Below, one piece after another: positions 2,255 to 10,410 of a stretch of 64,000 nt of DNA. A program made the translations under genes and the position numbers. Below the pieces are notes generated by a model, which was not told where the DNA came from, searched no databases, and was given only the letters and a program-made list of their open reading frames with translations. Source of the stretch: an uncultured Bacilli bacterium (GTDB lineage Bacteria; Bacillota_I; Bacilli_A; RF39; UBA660); NCBI GenBank assembly GCA_944332025.1, contig CALVJB010000002.1, positions 26,566 to 90,565 on the forward strand. The letters run 5' to 3'. Within the stretch, counting starts at the first letter, position 1, and each line of letters opens with the position of its first letter.

Positions 2255-3637
2255 ATGGTAATTGATGCAAAAGAATTATATGAAAAAATAGATGAATATA
2301 TGGATAAAGAAGTAACTTTGGAAGGATGGATTAGAAATCATCGTAAACAAAAAGAGTTTGGTTTTATAGATTTTTCTGATGGTACTTGTTTTAAACATAT
2401 ACAAGTTGTTTATGATGATAAATTAGAAGATTTTGAAGAGATACAAAAGTATCATGTTGGTAGTGCTATTAGAGTGAAAGGTTTAGTAGTTAAATCTCCT
2501 AAGGAAGGACAACCTTTTGAAATACAGGCAAGTGAAGTTATATTACTAGGAGAATGTCCAGAAGATTATCCAATTCAACCTAAGAAACACTCTCGTGAGT
2601 TTTTAAGAGAACAAGCTTATCTTAGACCTAGAACTAACTTGTTTCAAGCAGTATTTAGAGTTAGAAGTGTAGCAGCTTATGCTATTCATAAATATTTCCA
2701 AGATAGAGGCTATGTTTACTTCCATGCTCCATTAATTACAGCAAGTGACTGTGAAGGAGCAGGAGAGATGTTTCATGTAACATGTCTTGATTTAGATAAT
2801 GTTCCAAAAGTAGATGGTAAAGTAGATTATAGTAAAGATATGTTTTCTAAACCTACATCATTAACAGTATCAGGACAACTAGAAGCAGAGACATTCGCTC
2901 TTGCTTACAAGAAAACTTATACTTTTGGTCCTACATTTAGAGCAGAAAACTCTAATACTAAAGTACATGCTAATGAGTTTTGGATGATTGAACCTGAGAT
3001 TGCTTTTTGTGATTTAAATGGGGATATGGAAATAATGGAAAGTATGTTAAAATATGTAGTTAGTTATGTATTGGAGCACTGTAAAGATGAAATGGAATTC
3101 TTAGATAAATTTGTAGAGAAAGGATTACTTGATAAACTTACTAAACTAGTTAATTCTAAATTTACAAGAGTTACTCACAAAGAGGTTATAGACATATTAC
3201 AAAAAGCAGATGTTAAATGGGAGTTTGAACCTAAACAAGGTGAAGATATTGCAAAAGAACATGAGAAATATATTACAGAATATTTTGATGGACCAGTATT
3301 TATTACTGACTGGCCTAAAGATATTAAAGCTTTCTATATGAAACAAAATCCTGATGGAGAGACTGTTGCAGCAGTAGATCTTGAAGTACCTGGTGCAGGA
3401 GAGATAATGGGTGGTAGTCAAAGAGAAGAAGACTATGATAAATTAGTCACTCGTATGGATGAGTTAGGTATGGATAAAGATGAACTTGACTGGTACATTA
3501 ATCTTCGTAAGTATGGTGGTTGTGTTCATTCAGGATTTGGTATGGGTTTTGAAAGACTTTTAATCTATTTAACAGGTGTTGAAAATATAAGAGATGTTAT
3601 ACCATATCCAAGAACACCTGGTAACTGTGAGTTTTAG
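2255..3637 (+). CDS. asnS: asparaginyl-tRNA synthetase
   Basis: Class II aaRS motifs (FRAEN, GGSQREE, GFGMGFERL), N-terminal anticodon-binding OB fold, 460 aa. Confidence 0.95.
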   Translation: MVIDAKELYEKIDEYMDKEVTLEGWIRNHRKQKEFGFIDFSDGTCFKHIQVVYDDKLEDFEEIQKYHVGSAIRVKGLVVKSPKEGQPFEIQASEVILLGECPEDYPIQPKKHSREFLREQAYLRPRTNLFQAVFRVRSVAAYAIHKYFQDRGYVYFHAPLITASDCEGAGEMFHVTCLDLDNVPKVDGKVDYSKDMFSKPTSLTVSGQLEAETFALAYKKTYTFGPTFRAENSNTKVHANEFWMIEPEIAFCDLNGDMEIMESMLKYVVSYVLEHCKDEMEFLDKFVEKGLLDKLTKLVNSKFTRVTHKEVIDILQKADVKWEFEPKQGEDIAKEHEKYITEYFDGPVFITDWPKDIKAFYMKQNPDGETVAAVDLEVPGAGEIMGGSQREEDYDKLVTRMDELGMDKDELDWYINLRKYGGCVHSGFGMGFERLLIYLTGVENIRDVIPYPRTPGNCEF

Positions 3638-3647
3638 GAGGAGTAAA

Positions 3648-4142
3648 ATGAATAATTTCTTGTTAAAAGTAATAGATGCTAATGGTATTGAAATACTTGA
3701 TGATAAACAAGCTTTTGGTAAAACTCATTATGATTCTCTTGATAAGCTTTCAAAAATGATAAATATATCTTTTACAACTAGAAATAGAGAAACAATGGCA
3801 TTACAATTAGCGGAAGAAAGAAATTTGACAACTATTTTCAATGTTAAAGTAGGTTATCTTTTCGTTTTACCAGAAAATTGTACTGAACTTTTAATCAATT
3901 ATTTAGAAAATAATTTACCTTTATATCAAGAAGAAGAACAAAAAGGTAAGATAATTGAAGTAAGACTTTTCTCTAAGGAACCAGTTTATTATAATCACAA
4001 CCATTATCGTGATTTAATAACAGAAGAAAAGATAGATATTTTAGAAGGTAAGAAAAAAGAAGAAGAATTAGTTACAGTGTTGTTAAAAGAAGAACTTGCA
4101 AGACAAAAAGAGCTAATTGAATCAAAAAAAGATTTATGTTAA
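3648..4142 (+). CDS. hypothetical protein
   Basis: ORF 3594..4142 overlaps the asnS end. AGGAGG-7 nt-ATG at 3648 gives a 164-aa product (MNNFLLKVIDANG...). No family recognised. Confidence 0.5.
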   Translation: MNNFLLKVIDANGIEILDDKQAFGKTHYDSLDKLSKMINISFTTRNRETMALQLAEERNLTTIFNVKVGYLFVLPENCTELLINYLENNLPLYQEEEQKGKIIEVRLFSKEPVYYNHNHYRDLITEEKIDILEGKKKEEELVTVLLKEELARQKELIESKKDLC

Positions 4143-4164
4143 AAAACAACATAAATCTTTTTTG
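4128..4164 (+). terminator. rho-independent terminator
   Basis: 13-bp stem AAAGATTTATGTT / AACATAAATCTTT, 7-nt loop, then a T-run. Overlaps the stop codon at 4140. Confidence 0.7.
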
Positions 4165-4232
4165 TATCATTATTTTGGTTTACAAATATTCTTTTTGATG
4201 ATAAAATATAAACTATAAAAGAGGTGAGGATT

Positions 4233-5276
4233 ATGAATGAAATTGGAAGAAATTTAAAAAAAATAAGATTATTAAAAAGCCTTTCTCTTAAAGAAGCTGG
4301 TAATCTTCTTAATATGTCTCCTACTGCTGTTTCAAAATATGAGAAGGGGAATATAGTACCTGATTCTCTTAAACTAATAGAGTTTGCTAATGCCTATGAT
4401 GTTAAAACTATTGATTTAATTAAAGCATATAAAACACCTAAAATGGAATTTACTTCTTTTAGAAAGAAAAAAAGATTAACTGGTGGAAATTTAGAACTTT
4501 TGAAGCAATTAATATTAGAAGAAGTTTCTAAGTATTTAGAAGTTCTTAATTTAAGTAATGTAAGTATTAATAAAATCAAATTAAAAAAATATCTATGTAA
4601 TAATTTAAATGATGCCGAAAAAGCAGCAGAGAGTTTTAGAAACTTTATTGAGATATCTAATAAACAACCAATATCAGATTTAATTAACATATTAGAGAAT
4701 TTAGGTATTATTATAATTCAATTAAAAAATTATGATAATCGTTTTAGTGATTTTGATGGTTTAAGCGAAATTGTTGAAGGAGTTCCTGTCATTGTATTAT
4801 TAGATGGTATAACTGATGGAGCGAGACAAAGATTTACCATTGCTCATGAACTAGCTCATTTAATATTAGATATTAAAGATGAAAACATAGATGAAGAAAA
4901 GTTATGTAATCGTTTTGCTAGTGCTTTATTGATGCCTAAAGAAGCGATTATAAATGAGTTTGGTTTATTTAGAAAAAATATAAGTTTTTATGAGTTGAAT
5001 GCTTTTAAAAATGAATATAAAGTTAGTTATGCAGCGATTGTATATAGACTAAAAGATTTAAATATTATTTCAGAATATCTCTATAAAAAATTAAATATAT
5101 TTATAAGTAAAAATATAGAAAAAAATGATCCTAATCCTATAATGCCTGAAGTATCATATCAATTTAAAAGAATTGTTCATAAATTAAAAGCAAATGGGAT
5201 AATCACTTTAAATAAAGCTTGCGAACTTTTGGGGGTATCAGCTGATGAGTATAACAGAGAAGATTATAGTTACTGA
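4233..5276 (+). CDS. XRE-family HTH fused to ImmA/IrrE-family metallo-endopeptidase
   Basis: N-terminal HTH_3 (LKEAGNLLNMSPTAVSKYEKG) and a C-terminal ImmA/IrrE HEXXH region (RQRFTIAHELAHLIL). ATG at 4233 with AGAGGTG RBS; ORF track starts at GTG 4224. Confidence 0.8.
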   Translation: MNEIGRNLKKIRLLKSLSLKEAGNLLNMSPTAVSKYEKGNIVPDSLKLIEFANAYDVKTIDLIKAYKTPKMEFTSFRKKKRLTGGNLELLKQLILEEVSKYLEVLNLSNVSINKIKLKKYLCNNLNDAEKAAESFRNFIEISNKQPISDLINILENLGIIIIQLKNYDNRFSDFDGLSEIVEGVPVIVLLDGITDGARQRFTIAHELAHLILDIKDENIDEEKLCNRFASALLMPKEAIINEFGLFRKNISFYELNAFKNEYKVSYAAIVYRLKDLNIISEYLYKKLNIFISKNIEKNDPNPIMPEVSYQFKRIVHKLKANGIITLNKACELLGVSADEYNREDYSY

Positions 5277-5760
5277 TACAAATATAATAACAGATTTAAA
5301 TAATGCAAATATTTTAGATAAATTTGTAGGCTTAGATAATGTTTATATAAGTGATTTAGTTAAAAATGATGAAGTAAACTCTAAAACTGGTGATTTAAAA
5401 ATTATCGATAAATTTAAAACACTTAGACTAACTGATGAACAATTAATAGAAGTAAGTACTTTATCTAGTGAAGAAAATAAATTATCTGTATATGATTTAA
5501 TAAATTATATACTTGCAAGAGATAATGATGGAATACTGGCGACAGGCGATAATAGATTAAAAAATTATTCAGAAAAAAATGGGGTGAAGGTAATTAGAAC
5601 CTTAAAAATTATTAAATTGTTGAAAGATAATAATATAATATCTTGTAAAGAAGTGATTAAAGCTTGTATTTTGTTGAAAGAATGCCAGAGTACTAGAATA
5701 CCAGAAGAAGATATTAATAATTTAATAACAGAATTTAAAACAGGATTAGTTATAATTTAA
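5245..5760 (+). CDS. PIN-like (DUF4411-like) putative nuclease
   Basis: Acidic residues spaced as in PIN domains (IIVTDTNIITDL ... ILATGDNRL). Start overlaps the end of the ImmA/IrrE gene, so likely translationally coupled. Confidence 0.5.
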   Translation: MSITEKIIVTDTNIITDLNNANILDKFVGLDNVYISDLVKNDEVNSKTGDLKIIDKFKTLRLTDEQLIEVSTLSSEENKLSVYDLINYILARDNDGILATGDNRLKNYSEKNGVKVIRTLKIIKLLKDNNIISCKEVIKACILLKECQSTRIPEEDINNLITEFKTGLVII

Positions 5761-5848
5761 TAAATTATTAATAGAATATTATAATATTGGTAATAAAGAC
5801 AAAATCTTCTCTTTTCTATATAATAAGTGTATATTCGGTTTAGAATTA

Positions 5849-5869
5849 AATAAGGGGCTGAGTAGAAAT
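5849..5869 (+). repeat. 21-bp inverted repeat, left copy (AATAAGGGGCTGAGTAGAAAT)
   Basis: Perfect reverse complement of 6132..6152. Confidence 0.8.
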
Positions 5870-5893
5870 GAATAATTTCTATTCAGTTTTTTT
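5858..5893 (+). terminator. rho-independent terminator
   Basis: CTGAGTAGAAAT / ATTTCTATTCAG hairpin (one mismatch) followed by TTTTTTT. Downstream of the ImmA-PIN pair. Confidence 0.55.
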
Positions 5894-6128
5894 GAAATCA
5901 AGTAAAAAATTAAAAAAGCGAAAGAAAACTTAATTTCTAACGCTATATGTGATACGTAATCTAATGACAAAAGAAGATGTATCACATGAACTATTTTAAC
6001 ACAAAAGCATTTATTTTAATAGTTCCCTCAACAAGTACTATGAGGAAATTAAAAAAATATATTTATTATAAATATACATTTTTATAAATACTAAGAAATC
6101 AAACAAAAAAGAGGCTAGAAATTTTTAC

Positions 6129-6905
6129 TCAATTTCTACTCAGCCCCTTATTTAAATATTCAAGTATATTATCTTTTAAATATAGGCACTCACTTGTGTC
6201 TTTAACATTAAATGCCTTGATAAAAGTATTAATGATATTATCAATAGTATCTTTAGTAATTATTCTCTTGCTAGCTTGTAAATTTAAATCATAGACAAAA
6301 GCTAAGATATTAGCAAGTTTGTCTATAGCAGTTTTTCTGTTTCTTAAATCAACTAATCTATGACTATCAAAATCTTCTTTTACTTTAGAATCTAATTTAG
6401 CTCCTTCTACATATGGCAAAATATAAAAGTCTTTAATATTATTATCGTAGGTAGCTACATAAAATATATCTAATTTATCGGCATCTCTAATTGCTTTACA
6501 AAATAGTTCTTCTTTAGAAGTTAATTCATAATTTAAATTCATTTTATTATGGTATTTAACAGCTTTATAAATAATATCATCATACTTATTATCATCTATA
6601 AACCTTCTAATAAGATTATCTTTGAAAAGAATCTCTGCTCCTAAATCGGCATGGTCTATAGTTTTACTATCAACAATAGAATTATATCTTTTCATTTGAA
6701 GAAATCTGCCGATATCGTGTAAATAACCAATTAGAATTAAAAGGTTAGTATCTTCTAAAGAAAGATTAAGTGCATTAGCAATTTTTTTACAATTATTTTT
6801 TACTCTTAAAGTATGTTCATACTTTCTTTTAATAGTTACATTATTAAAATCATACTCGCTAACATAATCTTTAAAAGTTTTATCTATTTTTTCTAAATCT
6901 ATCAT
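6129..6905 (-). CDS. HD-domain phosphohydrolase
   Basis: HD motif (IGYLHDIGRF) with a downstream DHADLG; 258 aa. Confidence 0.7.
   Translation of the reverse strand: MIDLEKIDKTFKDYVSEYDFNNVTIKRKYEHTLRVKNNCKKIANALNLSLEDTNLLILIGYLHDIGRFLQMKRYNSIVDSKTIDHADLGAEILFKDNLIRRFIDDNKYDDIIYKAVKYHNKMNLNYELTSKEELFCKAIRDADKLDIFYVATYDNNIKDFYILPYVEGAKLDSKVKEDFDSHRLVDLRNRKTAIDKLANILAFVYDLNLQASKRIITKDTIDNIINTFIKAFNVKDTSECLYLKDNILEYLNKGLSRN
6132..6152 (-). repeat. 21-bp inverted repeat, right copy
   Basis: ATTTCTACTCAGCCCCTTATT is the perfect reverse complement of 5849..5869. It overlaps the last 6 codons (KGLSRN) of the HD-domain gene. Confidence 0.8.
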
Positions 6906-6913
6906 GATTCCTC

Positions 6914-7825
6914 CTAAAATATAAGAGTTTTTAATATTCTTTGTGTATTTCTAAAATTATACTTTGCTACATCTTTTAACTTTTCTTCTCCATATTTATT
7001 AACAAGCTCTTCTCCAACTTTATCAACATTAACTCCAGCTCCTTTAGGAAGAGGAAGTCCTACTTCATCACATAATCTATCAAACTCTTTTAAGAAGATA
7101 TATCTACTAATAATAGAAGCTGCTCCAACAGCTAGATTCTTATCTTCAGCTTTTTGAACGAAAGTAATACCTCTTTGAACATTAGGAACATCTTTAATAT
7201 AATCATAGTATCTAGCTTCTCTTGCGAATTCATCTACAATAATATAGTCAACGTCTGGTTTTAATTCTTGCATTATCTGGTATAATACTTTGTTATGCAT
7301 AATAGCCTTTATCTTATTCATATTAATATCTCTACTATACTTTTCATTATATTCTTTATTAGTTAGAATAACTGAACGATAAGGAATCTTTTTTATAAGT
7401 TCTGGAGTTACTTTTAAAATAAAGTCATCTGTTAATTTTTTAGAGTCTCTTATCCCTAAATCTTCTAAATACTTTACATTATCTTTACTAACATAAGTTG
7501 CAGTTACAACAATAGGACCAAAGTAGTCTCCTGTTCCAACTTCATCACTACCAACTGATGATACGTTATGATATATAGAATCCTTTTCTTTCTGTTTTTC
7601 TTTTTCTTCCTTAGTATTAGATAAAAAAGTTCCCCACATCGCTGCATCTACATCAGCACTTGTTCCTTGAAACATAACTTTACCAGATTCATACATAGTA
7701 ATAACAGTATCTTCATCTTTCGCTTGAAATACAACATAAGGAATCTTTTTATCACGCATTTTATCCTTGTAATACTCTATCATTTTTTGTTTTACTTCAT
7801 CATTTACTTTAATAACTACGTTCAT
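6914..7825 (-). CDS. rnhC: ribonuclease HIII
   Basis: 303 aa. N-terminal TBP-like domain (PYVVFQAKDEDTVITMYESGKVMFQG) plus an RNase H catalytic domain (GSDEVGTGDYFGP). Divergent from cvpA, as in Bacillus. Confidence 0.8.
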   Translation of the reverse strand: MNVVIKVNDEVKQKMIEYYKDKMRDKKIPYVVFQAKDEDTVITMYESGKVMFQGTSADVDAAMWGTFLSNTKEEKEKQKEKDSIYHNVSSVGSDEVGTGDYFGPIVVTATYVSKDNVKYLEDLGIRDSKKLTDDFILKVTPELIKKIPYRSVILTNKEYNEKYSRDINMNKIKAIMHNKVLYQIMQELKPDVDYIIVDEFAREARYYDYIKDVPNVQRGITFVQKAEDKNLAVGAASIISRYIFLKEFDRLCDEVGLPLPKGAGVNVDKVGEELVNKYGEEKLKDVAKYNFRNTQRILKTLIF

Positions 7826-7902: not shown

Positions 7903-8616
7903 ATGAGCCCAAATATATTTAGTGTTATTATTATTCTTTTAATACTAGCTTGTGGAGTTTTAGGTAGTAAAAGAGGAATACTTAAAGAACTTGTTATTAT
8001 TGTAGGTACAATTGTAGTATTTGTACTATCTTTCTTATTAAAAGATGTGGTAGCTTCTATTTTCTGTCAGAACTTACCGTTCTTTAATTTTAGAATACCT
8101 TTAGGTAATTTGGTAAGTTTAAATATTATTTTCTATCAATTAATAGCATTTTTAATATTAGTAATACTATTTAGATTAATTCTTCAAATATTAGTTGATG
8201 TTACAGGTATATTTAATAAGATTATTAATGCTACTATAATACTTGCTTTGCCTAATAAATTATTAGGATTTATTGTAGGACTATTAGAAGGTTATATCTT
8301 AATGTTTATTATTTTAAATGTTATTGCAATTCCTATGAGTGGTAGTGAGTTATTTATGGATTCTTCTGTTAGAAAGTTTATTGTCAATGATACTCCAGTA
8401 CTTAAAGATTCAATTGGTGGTTTAAACTATGCTATTGAAGATGTACTTAGCTTATCTAGTAAAGATGATAGAAATACTAATGATTTAAAAGTAATTGATA
8501 TTATGTTAAAATATGATGTAGTTACAACTGATTTTATGGATGATGTTAAATCTACTGGTAAATTAGATAAAATATCAGGACTTGATAGTGTAATAGATAA
8601 ATATAGGGAGGAATAG
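7903..8616 (+). CDS. cvpA: CvpA-family membrane protein
   Basis: Multi-pass membrane protein. AAGGAGTG RBS. Conserved rnhC-cvpA neighbourhood. Confidence 0.65.
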   Translation: MSPNIFSVIIILLILACGVLGSKRGILKELVIIVGTIVVFVLSFLLKDVVASIFCQNLPFFNFRIPLGNLVSLNIIFYQLIAFLILVILFRLILQILVDVTGIFNKIINATIILALPNKLLGFIVGLLEGYILMFIILNVIAIPMSGSELFMDSSVRKFIVNDTPVLKDSIGGLNYAIEDVLSLSSKDDRNTNDLKVIDIMLKYDVVTTDFMDDVKSTGKLDKISGLDSVIDKYREE

Positions 8617-8942: not shown

Positions 8943-9033
8943 CTTGGTTGCAACTGAAAATTTACATAAATTAACTTAAAATTGGTGGGACGCAACCGAG
9001 TTTTTTGGTAAATTTTAAACAGAGGTGAGAAAT

Positions 9034-10410
9034 ATGTTTTTTGCTAGTAATTTGCAAAAGTTAAGAAAAAGAGAAAATATGTCTCAGGAAGCTTTAGCTG
9101 AAAAATTAGATGTTACAAGACAATCTGTATCTAAATGGGAAAGTGGGGCAAGTTATCCAGAGATGGATAAATTAATATCTATATGTAAGATCTTTAATGT
9201 AGATATGGATACTTTAGTAAATGGAGATGTAGATGAAAAGAAAGATACAAATAAGGAGACTACTATTAATACTAAAGATCTTTTAGATAAGTTTAATACT
9301 TTAATGAAAAAGATAGTTTGTCTTTTTGAAAGTATGAGTTTTAAAGAGATAATAGAGTTTTTAGTAACAGTATTTCTTTTAATTATTATTATTTTAATAG
9401 GGACTATACCTAAAGATATTATAGAGAATCTAATAGGAGATGGACTTTTATATGATATTGCATATGTAGGACCTGCACTTAATACGATATTTACATTTAT
9501 AGTAGATATTTTATATAGTGTTTTTTCTATAGTAATATTTATCTATGTCTTAAAGATTAAATACCTAGATAGAATTAAAATAAACGAAGATACTGATAAA
9601 GAGATAGTTGCAAAAGTTAAAGAGAAAAGAGTAGAAGAAGTAGAGAGAGTTATTATTAAAGATAATAATAGTAATTCTTTAACAAGAACACTTGCTAAGA
9701 TAATTATTTATATAATTAAGTTTTTTGTAGTATTATTTCTTTTCGCACCACTTATATGTATTGTAGTATTTGCAGTTATGTTAGGGTTTGAAGTGTTATT
9801 TGTTATAAAGGGACTTCCTTTAATAGGGATACTTTTATGGACAATAGCAGGTATAATAATTACTTCATTATGTTTTGAAGTACCTTTAAACTTTGTTATT
9901 AATCATAAAAATAATTATAAAAGAGTAATGATTACATTACTTATATCACTTATTATAATTATTATAGGTTCTATTATATTTGCTTTTGAATTCTTTTCTT
10001 TAACTTATGTAGATAGTCTGCCTATTGATGTTAAGACTAAAGATATTATAGAAACATTACCTATGACAAGTGATTTTAAGACTATAGGATATTATCATAA
10101 TGATATAAAATATGTAGTAGATGATAGTCTGACAGATAGAGTAGAGGTAACGGTTACTTATTATGACTATTTAGTAGATTATAATATAGAAGTGGAATTA
10201 CATAATGATAATTTATTAGTTTATATGGATAGTCCTAAAGAATTTAGCTTTAAGGATGCATTAGACAAAATAAGTGATGATATTAAAGATGGTAAGATCT
10301 ATAATTATGATAAGTTAAATGAATATAAAGTTACTATTAAAACTAGTAGTGATAATATTAATATAATAAAAAATAATAATAAAGAATTCTTTAATGAAAA
10401 TAATTCCTAG
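9034..10410 (+). CDS. XRE-family HTH regulator fused to a multi-pass membrane domain
   Basis: HTH_3 (SQEALAEKLDVTRQSVSKWESG) followed by at least 4 TM helices. ATG at 9034 with AGAGGTG RBS; ORF track starts at GTG 9025. Confidence 0.65.
   Translation: MFFASNLQKLRKRENMSQEALAEKLDVTRQSVSKWESGASYPEMDKLISICKIFNVDMDTLVNGDVDEKKDTNKETTINTKDLLDKFNTLMKKIVCLFESMSFKEIIEFLVTVFLLIIIILIGTIPKDIIENLIGDGLLYDIAYVGPALNTIFTFIVDILYSVFSIVIFIYVLKIKYLDRIKINEDTDKEIVAKVKEKRVEEVERVIIKDNNSNSLTRTLAKIIIYIIKFFVVLFLFAPLICIVVFAVMLGFEVLFVIKGLPLIGILLWTIAGIIITSLCFEVPLNFVINHKNNYKRVMITLLISLIIIIIGSIIFAFEFFSLTYVDSLPIDVKTKDIIETLPMTSDFKTIGYYHNDIKYVVDDSLTDRVEVTVTYYDYLVDYNIEVELHNDNLLVYMDSPKEFSFKDALDKISDDIKDGKIYNYDKLNEYKVTIKTSSDNINIIKNNNKEFFNENNS

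Follow-up and report, generated by a model that had tools for sequence, protein, structure and literature searches.

Between the asnS and rnhC genes of an uncultured Bacilli bacterium (GTDB lineage Bacillota_I; Bacilli_A; RF39; UBA660), two overlapping genes raise the question of whether a regulator that joins a DNA-binding helix-turn-helix (HTH) domain to a zinc peptidase of the M78 family, together with a downstream PIN-domain protein, serves as a toxin-antitoxin (TA) or abortive-infection module, as a transcriptional switch, or as an ordinary regulator of its lineage. The pair lies in a 64,000-nucleotide (nt) stretch of contig CALVJB010000002.1 (GenBank assembly GCA_944332025.1, positions 26,566 to 90,565 of the forward strand), hereafter called the window, to which coordinates refer unless a locus is named. 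The two genes make up a real, well-formed and probably functional module, and we favour, with reasonable confidence, the reading that it is a self-contained and horizontally mobile TA-like or abortive-infection module of the RosmerTA type, in which the regulator-protease would restrain a PIN ribonuclease (RNase). Judged from its distribution, the cassette is accessory, and it lies in a variable islet of defence genes in an uncultured gut bacterium. The combination of an HTH-M78 protein with a PIN protein is already described computationally (Matelska 2017; NetFlax 2023).

Architecture and conservation of the regulator-PIN pair

The original prediction regarded gene 1 as a fusion of an XRE-type HTH and an ImmA/IrrE-like protease, which Pfam, PADLOC and Foldseek all bear out. 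Its product begins with an XRE HTH (residues ~1-63); a linker leads to the Peptidase_M78 domain (~125-294), and a second linker, of low confidence (295-313), precedes a small helical element at the C-terminus that resembles an HTH (309-340). Pfam detects HTH_3 (E 4.9e-10) and Peptidase_M78 (PF06114; E 7.2e-15, 55.3 bits against a cut-off of 22, residues 159-274), and the zinc-binding motif is contained in RFTIAHELAHL at residues 200-210. E206 and H209 do not vary among 49 gene 1 homologues, and conservation of H205 is at least 90%; the third zinc ligand is probably E222, within an E-x2-C-N-x-F-A motif, or E237. In PADLOC, 14 RmrA models match gene 1 over its full length (best E 2.7e-40, residues 6-338), and capP (8.4e-19) and capH (5.8e-06) match more weakly. 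A full-length match was also obtained to phrog_2439 of PHROGs, annotated as a transcriptional regulator (2.5e-55), as well as a match to the spr1629 repressor/antitoxin family of NCBIfam with a score under that family's cut-off.

The AlphaFold2 (AF2) model of gene 1, built with the 49 homologues, is of moderate quality (predicted local distance difference test, pLDDT, 73.5) and contains an N-terminal HTH, the peptidase domain, a disordered linker at residues 295-313 and three short C-terminal helices. According to Foldseek, the peptidase domain resembles CapP (7t5t, E 1.1e-4) and IrrE (3dti, E 5.6e-4), both with probability 1.0, and the HTH resembles C-proteins, DdrO and CapH. Moreover, a profile search of the PDB retrieved 9vzy, a chain with an HTH and an M78-like part that was the best sequence match (1.3e-4), as well as ICEBs1 ImmR, IrrE and CapP. 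Pfam found no GAF domain in gene 1, and in the model the peptidase domain is followed by ~50 residues that form the three short helices.

The PIN fold proposed for gene 2 holds up in the model, in Foldseek, in alignments and in a profile match. The AF2 model (54 homologues) has a pLDDT of 89 and a predicted template-modelling score (pTM) of 0.85, with PIN core strands at residues 7-9, 33-36, 58-60, 97-99 and 116-117 and a C-terminal helical extension at ~119-170. Almost all of the top 50 PDB matches in Foldseek are PIN proteins (probability ~1.0, target template-modelling score 0.6-0.66, with modest E values of ~2e-3), the best being VapC4 (5h4g), PAE2754, the Rv0301 VapC, FitB, Nob1 and the HARP RNase P. 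The acidic residues that the original prediction had pointed to are found in the motifs VTDTNI (D11) and ATGDNRL (D102), and D11, E43, D84 and D102 are invariant in the 54 close homologues. In an alignment of 56 full-length relatives with 24-49% identity, D11 and D84 are still invariant, and D17, T100-G101-D102 and R151/P153 are at least 90% conserved. The profile of these 56 relatives matches the PIN structure 1o4w at 1e-6, with the DTN, SxxD and TGD motifs aligned. Relatives of gene 2 among 1.84 billion cluster representatives amount to 801 at E<=1e-3, only 24 of which reach E<=1e-30.

The suggested likeness of gene 2 to DUF4411 has to be abandoned, as PF14367 matches the protein at no E<=1 and is absent from the eight families matched by the 56 relatives at E<=0.01. 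Instead, gene 2 is best placed, from its sequence relatives, in the COG2405/DUF3368 branch of PIN proteins. DUF3368 (PF11848) is matched by 22 of the 56 relatives at E<=0.01 and maps to the helical extension past the last strand of the PIN core, at residues ~112-160 in the relatives. The call on gene 2 itself depends on the model version: the local PF11848.13 gives no match, while in the precomputed annotation of the identical protein (PF11848.14) the family is entered with no 'weak' mark. PF11848.14 is also assigned to nearly all close homologues.

Translational coupling of the two genes, as originally predicted, was confirmed. Gene 2 starts 32 nt ahead of the gene 1 stop. Of 77 sequences, 70 retain an overlap of 32 or 38 nt, and a GGGG/GGAG run invariably precedes the gene 2 start codon; the overlap is therefore not due to chance. 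Purifying selection acts on both genes, with median ratios of nonsynonymous to synonymous substitution (dN/dS) of ~0.21 for gene 1 and ~0.27 for gene 2.

Upstream of gene 1 lies a sigma-70-like promoter with a -35 element TTTACA (4179-4184), a 17-nt spacer and an extended -10 element TGaTAAAAT (4199-4207). A 38-nt block that takes in the spacer and the ATAAAC after the -10 element follows the consensus (T)AGTTTACATTTCTnCTTTTTTATGATAAAATATAAACT in each of the 70 loci whose upstream sequence was usable, and directly upstream of the -35 edge conservation falls to background level. Since conservation starts at the -35 element and extends over the pair, the conserved unit consists of the promoter, gene 1 and gene 2. 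The promoter is bracketed by a dyad, AGTTTA...TAAACT, whose left arm is constant and whose right arm reads ATAAAC or ATTAAC, with no compensating changes; the dyad and the 38-nt block are a candidate operator.

A GTDB scan with one genome per species yielded 77 loci, all of them in metagenome-assembled genomes of uncultured gut Bacilli, 'Tenericutes' or 'Mycoplasma sp. CAG', including one circular 1.52-Mb chromosome. The regulator gene is found in 77/77 loci and the PIN gene directly after it in 76/77, with identities across the 77 species representatives of 55-98%. Outside the closest loci, 524 flanking open reading frames (ORFs) fall into 373 clusters with no shared context, and the asnS ... 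rnhC-cvpA-trx context is confined to the six closest, same-genus loci. The flanks contain Pfam families of housekeeping, restriction-modification, AbiEii-like, Fic and HTH_36 types. Neither a second gene devoid of a PIN fold nor a universal syntenic core position of the pair, the two outcomes that the original prediction had named as speaking against it, was found.

The PIN gene is truncated or frameshifted beside an intact regulator in ~10 loci, while a single locus, L062 (7222-7987), combines an intact PIN ORF, with all acidic residues, and a destroyed regulator, of which only the last 27% is left, without start codon or promoter block. The PIN gene of L062 is presumably a silent orphan toxin gene. 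Such an asymmetry, in which the PIN is lost and the regulator kept, is expected if the PIN is harmful and the regulator protective.

Beyond the gut Bacilli, the same kind of pair occurs on two plasmids. The Rhodothermus marinus plasmid pRMAR01 (L082, 1945-3489) encodes a 347-amino-acid (aa) XRE-M78 protein and a 163-aa DUF3368 PIN protein beside a type I-U CRISPR-Cas system, and the Sphingobium plasmid pTK1 (L083, 1927-3486) carries a 354-aa and 163-aa pair beside an IS3 transposase and a TerB-N protein. The plasmid and window regulators share 33% identity and align collinearly from end to end (E 2e-53), and the PIN proteins share 30% identity (E 1e-18). The PIN of pRMAR01 matches the PADLOC candidate family PDC-S70 (E 9.9e-07), whereas that of the window does not. 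Because the pair is present on plasmids of two unrelated phyla, the pairing is old and has spread horizontally. In addition, the regulator has one weak phage match, in Lacticaseibacillus phage R24.2, where it stands after a 218-aa ORF. Exact-sequence lookups of rnhC and of the PIN gene returned only two contigs, with identical arrangement, and that of asnS returned no record.

Table 1. Positions of the pair and of the elements around it in the window
Feature	Position	Strand	Basis
RmrA-like gene 1, 347 aa (ATG 4233, stop 5274-5276)	4233..5276	+	Pfam, PADLOC, PHROGs, AF2, Foldseek
PIN-domain gene 2, COG2405/DUF3368 type, 171 aa (ATG 5245, stop 5758-5760)	5245..5760	+	AF2, Foldseek, conservation
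HEXXH zinc-binding/catalytic motif (H205 E206 L A H209)	4845..4859	+	sequence; homologue conservation
Shine-Dalgarno of gene 1, AAGAGGTGAGG	4219..4229	+	sequence; GGAG-like run kept in relatives
Internal Shine-Dalgarno GGGGG of gene 2, inside the 3' end of gene 1	5231..5235	+	sequence; GGGG/GGAG at the same distance in relatives
Promoter/candidate operator block GGTTTACAAATATTCTTTTTGATGATAAAATATAAACT	4177..4214	+	promoter scan; conserved in relatives
Predicted upstream terminator: perfect 16-nt inverted repeat (100% complementary) and T-run	4125..4163	+	folding free energy (dG) -15.3 kcal/mol, z -5.1
Terminator-like hairpin, 18-bp stem and T-run	5852..5892	+	dG -18.6 kcal/mol, z -6.26; 0/200 shuffles as stable
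Left cassette junction TCAAAAAAAGA, one copy of the ~10-nt direct repeat	4122..4132	.	junction alignment, L164 sequence
Fic-gene remnant (last ~32 codons; context, not part of the system)	5756..5875	+	tblastn, 75% identity to Fic residues 190-221; translation

Proposed mode of action and rival explanations

In the RosmerTA-type reading, one promoter drives gene 1 and, via the overlap and the internal ribosome-binding site, the gene for a PIN protein that keeps the four acidic residues of active PIN nucleases; this much the analysis shows. The HTH would bind the 38-nt promoter block and auto-repress the operon, and the gene 1 protein would keep the PIN harmless by direct binding and/or by low expression. 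A trigger, which could be phage infection or another stress, would then activate or divert the peptidase, and by analogy with ImmA/ImmR, IrrE/DdrO and CapP/CapH the peptidase would cleave the HTH-bearing chain in cis or in trans. The operon would thereby be de-repressed and the PIN RNase freed to cut tRNA, rRNA or mRNA, leading to growth arrest and either abortive infection or addiction to the element. As gene 1 possesses no GAF domain, the trigger need not be single-stranded DNA (ssDNA). The stress- or phage-responsive regulator-plus-toxin role given in the original prediction fits the RmrA models, the defence-island neighbours (AbiL, Fic, restriction-modification and KAP NTPase genes), the presence/absence polymorphism and the decay of the toxin gene beside a retained regulator.

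Several points weigh against this reading. The role as such, that is the toxicity, neutralisation, proteolysis and phage defence of the pair, is inferred from sequence, and our literature search found no experimental work on an HTH-M78 and PIN pair. The GAF domain that forms the ssDNA groove in IrrE and CapP is missing from gene 1, so that their activation by ssDNA is not simply transferable, and we did not adopt it. The RmrA-type C-terminus of gene 1 is common to RmrA models with other toxins, which argues against a PIN-specific binding tail. Gene 2 scores under the Pfam gathering cut-off for PIN (PF01850, E 0.0025, 18.9 bits against 23.6); 39 of its 56 relatives have a PIN match at E<=0.01, and the Rhodothermus relative attains 27.8 bits. 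PADLOC gives no family for gene 2 at E<=1, and hence no RmrT model. The half-sites of the dyad are ~31 bp apart, an unusual spacing for an XRE operator, and many of the flanking genes across loci are ordinary housekeeping genes. Furthermore, the Xre-peptidase fusion of PD-lambda-2 is itself toxic, so the roles within the family are not fixed (Vassallo et al. 2022). Finally, the PIN has no match in 50,697 phage records by tblastn or in a scan of IMG/VR contigs.

Most of the probability that we withhold from the RosmerTA-type reading goes to a pure transcriptional switch of the CapH-CapP type, in which the fused HTH-peptidase would do no more than repress the operon and release it upon a signal of damage or infection, and the PIN would be an inducible effector that is never neutralised post-translationally; we regard it as rather unlikely. 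The fold of gene 1 is closest to CapP and IrrE and its HTH to those of CapH and DdrO, and the PADLOC matches to capP and capH given above point in the same direction. Fusions of CapH and CapP are known, one of them beside a vapC-like gene in a DISARM locus (Lau et al. 2022). The strong conservation of the promoter block is also in its favour, and for the pair of the Kita phage NetFlax obtained no predicted complex between RmrA and RmrT. However, CapH/CapP normally lie upstream of, and divergent from, the operon they control, whereas here the effector shares a transcript with the regulator and is translationally coupled to it, a layout classic for TA modules. The switch would also have to work without the GAF domain needed for ssDNA sensing, and in RosmerTA deletion of rmrA is not tolerated.

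It is improbable that gene 1 is a fused ImmR-ImmA immunity- or lysogeny-type regulator of a small integrative element, with the PIN as cargo or addiction factor. The full-length match to phrog_2439 and the match of the HTH to ICEBs1 ImmR would suit such a regulator, and so would the gene order of some relatives. In at least nine GTDB loci a conserved 107-aa ORF stands divergent beside the pair, and in L078-L081 genes for an HTH_36 protein and a large serine recombinase come after it. In this more distant relative (L078-L081) the pair is situated between the serine-recombinase/HTH_36 module and defence genes, namely a KAP NTPase (PDC-S20), a type II restriction enzyme with its methylase, PDC-S57 and SoFic; in L078 (5775-8704), as in L079-L081, the cassette diverges from a 41-aa and the 107-aa ORF, which precede the HTH_36 and recombinase genes. 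The cassette of the 107-aa-ORF loci may thus ride on, or regulate, a small integrative element. However, no recombinase or element genes adjoin the pair in the window and in most loci, the conserved unit is bounded by the -35 element and the PIN stop, and relatives are lacking in the phage and viral-contig collections.

Reversed roles, with a harmful HTH-peptidase restrained by the PIN-like protein, are highly improbable. This arrangement would parallel PD-lambda-2, whose Xre-peptidase is toxic alone and rescued by a HigB-like partner, and NetFlax reports variable gene order around the ImmA node. However, the ~10 loci with an intact regulator and a truncated PIN would then be lethal, and the PIN catalytic residues are kept in distant relatives, which suggests an enzyme over an inert inhibitor. 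The decay pattern thus argues against roles reversed as in PD-lambda-2. A housekeeping regulator with an RNA-processing nuclease of the lineage, for which the 77 species representatives of one lineage under purifying selection and the many ordinary metabolic neighbours could be cited, is hardly credible in view of the lack of a conserved position, the empty site of L164, the absence of the pair from L088, the decayed PIN of ~10 loci and the plasmids of unrelated phyla.

The asnS-rnhC islet

The pair was originally said to sit next to asnS and to be followed by a terminator. The terminator is real, but asnS (2255-3637) is not adjacent, as a 164-aa ORF of unknown function (3648-4142) lies in between. 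A consensus terminator scan found none; direct folding gave two strong AT-rich hairpins (Table 1). The one at 4125-4163 is predicted to terminate the 164-aa ORF and to insulate the cassette promoter. The one at 5852-5892, which lies 92 nt past the PIN stop and forms part of the Fic-gene remnant, is probably the stop of operon transcription in the strain of the window. Rfam gave no match over 3500-7000, so that nothing there points to an RNA antitoxin or a riboswitch.

Within the genus, the region from asnS to rnhC varies, and the GC content of the islet is 0.22-0.26, compared with 0.28-0.33 in its flanks. A full 223-aa Fic-family gene (Pfam Fic) follows the PIN gene by 10-17 nt in L001, L002, L005 and L006; L003 has a Fic remnant similar to that of the window, and L004 an internal deletion in Fic. 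The intact Fic relatives carry SQLFWDGNKRTA, with Q where the usual Fic/Doc motif has the catalytic His, and given this replacement the protein may be non-catalytic. AbiLi and AbiLii (AAA_21 and RloB; E 2.5e-95 and 5.6e-26) are found in the same islet of L001 (11303-13149) and L002 (6854-8697), and not in the window. In L004 an IS200-type (Y1_Tnp) transposase gene (8121-8579) lies between asnS and the cassette, and the 164-aa ORF is disrupted. As possible third components of the system, the 164-aa ORF was discarded since none of the 70 loci outside the genus contains it and L005 lacks it too, and the downstream Fic because it is restricted to the genus and deleted in the window, L003 and L004.

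An rnhC-based metagenome scan revealed a locus without the pair (L164), in which asnS, the 164-aa ORF, Fic and rnhC directly adjoin one another; L088, whose rnhC is 93% identical, lacks the pair as well. In L164 (790-900) the stop of the 164-aa ORF overlaps the start of Fic (GTGA, after correction of an apparent frameshift). The cassette therefore appears to lie within what may be another two-gene module, composed of the 164-aa ORF and Fic; the Fic of L005, which occurs without the 164-aa ORF, argues against a strict dependence of the two. In the junction alignment a single TCAAAAAAGA is present at the empty site of L164, and one copy stands on each side of the cassette, the second after the PIN stop in relatives. 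This ~10-nt repeat is A-rich and thus weak evidence on its own; the pattern is compatible with a target-duplicating insertion or with a deletion between short repeats.

A further conjecture is that the ~1.64-kb unit of terminator, promoter, regulator-protease and PIN inserts as a discrete cassette and relocates between chromosomal sites although it encodes no recombinase. We think this unlikely. It could draw on the 164-aa ORF and Fic flanks that overlap in L164, on the ~10-nt direct repeat, and on the occurrence of the unit, whose conservation starts exactly at the -35 element, at dozens of sites unrelated to one another across ~70 species whose genomes measure ~1.5 Mb. If it were true, the unit would be a defence or TA cassette that inserts by an unknown route, and its regulator might unite sensor, repressor and antitoxin in a single polypeptide and detect infection with no GAF/ssDNA groove like that of IrrE and CapP.

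Other features of the surroundings were noted as well. A perfect 19-nt inverted repeat (TAAGGGGCTGAGTAGAAAT) at 5851-5869 and 6132-6150 flanks 262 nt between the Fic remnant and a convergent gene; it has only these two copies in the window, against 0.01 expected by chance, and in each arm an ORF ends with ...NKGLSRN; L003 and L004 share a short hairpin there instead. The repeat could have arisen through a small insertion bearing inverted ends or through an inversion. The convergent gene (6129-6905, minus strand), which adjoins the pair, encodes a 258-aa HD-domain protein with weak Cas3-HD likeness (PADLOC E 5e-08), and besides the window only L004 and L006 have it, apparently frameshifted in the latter, which makes it a further variable gene of the islet. 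Finally, a 461-aa protein with an N-terminal XRE HTH and several predicted membrane spans is encoded at 9025-10410 on the plus strand; its place next to trx is conserved in same-genus relatives, and it is unrelated to the pair.

Significance and comparison with known systems

HTH-ImmA/IrrE fusions with varied toxins are among the commoner and least understood TA-like defence modules, and the puzzle they pose is how the protease senses infection and whether neutralisation proceeds by binding, by proteolysis or by repression only. The present clade offers a compact test case, with a PIN toxin, ~70 natural variants, a sharp promoter/operator block, alleles with decay and with an empty site, and distant plasmid relatives. 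It also shows that such cassettes are retained in the variable defence islets of uncultured gut Bacilli with small genomes. Its value is that of a comparative resource rather than of a surprise, and knowledge of this kind of system is left unchanged.

Among mobile-element regulators, the ImmR/ImmA switch differs from the pair in that the window and most loci have no integrase, recombinase or divergent element operon. CapH/CapP, IrrE/DdrO and ImmA/ImmR share with the pair an M78 fold with HEXXH and an XRE-type HTH repressor, and in these systems the peptidase cleaves the repressor and the operon is de-repressed; in IrrE and CapP the GAF and peptidase domains form an ssDNA-sensing groove. Unlike them, the window protein unites HTH and peptidase in one polypeptide without GAF, and the gene it would control is co-transcribed and not divergent. 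PD-lambda-2 (Vassallo et al. 2022) is similar in having an Xre-peptidase fusion in an anti-phage TA-like operon, but it has three components, a HigB-like partner and a toxic Xre-peptidase.

The pair resembles generic type II TA systems in its overlapping bicistron, accessory distribution and decay of the toxin with the antitoxin kept. As in VapBC and COG2405-UPF0175 systems, a PIN toxin with four acidic residues lies downstream of, and overlaps, a DNA-binding partner. However, the partner here is a 347-aa enzyme-bearing regulator instead of a small ribbon-helix-helix, AbrB or UPF0175/COG2886 antitoxin, the last being the usual partner of COG2405, and the PIN core of the window carries the DUF3368 C-terminal helical extension. 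According to Matelska et al. (2017), COG2405, DUF4411 and other PIN families are co-transcribed with HTH and DUF955 domains, as found computationally, and HTH-M78 (DUF955) is also listed as an alternative partner of COG2405. Their operon of Geobacillus sp. Y412MC61 (GYMC61_2169), compared by its description only, likewise has a fused HTH-DUF955 (COG2856) gene upstream of a COG2405 PIN, whereas the clade of the window is restricted to uncultured gut Bacilli and possesses a conserved promoter block of its own.

In NetFlax, ImmA (node D25) was described as a hub antitoxin with diverse toxins including PIN-like ones, of which only a membrane toxin was validated (Ernits et al. 2023); no PIN-type pair is among the validated systems. 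RosmerTA was shown to be an anti-phage TA system whose Zn-peptidase protein is the antitoxin, and a construct with rmrA deleted could not be transformed (Millman et al. 2022). The PIN of the window falls outside the RmrT models, and the validated RosmerTA toxins are of unknown function or membrane proteins. The pair nevertheless shares with RosmerTA the two-gene operon and the HTH and Peptidase_M78 regulator/antitoxin, gene 1 being matched by the 14 RmrA models.

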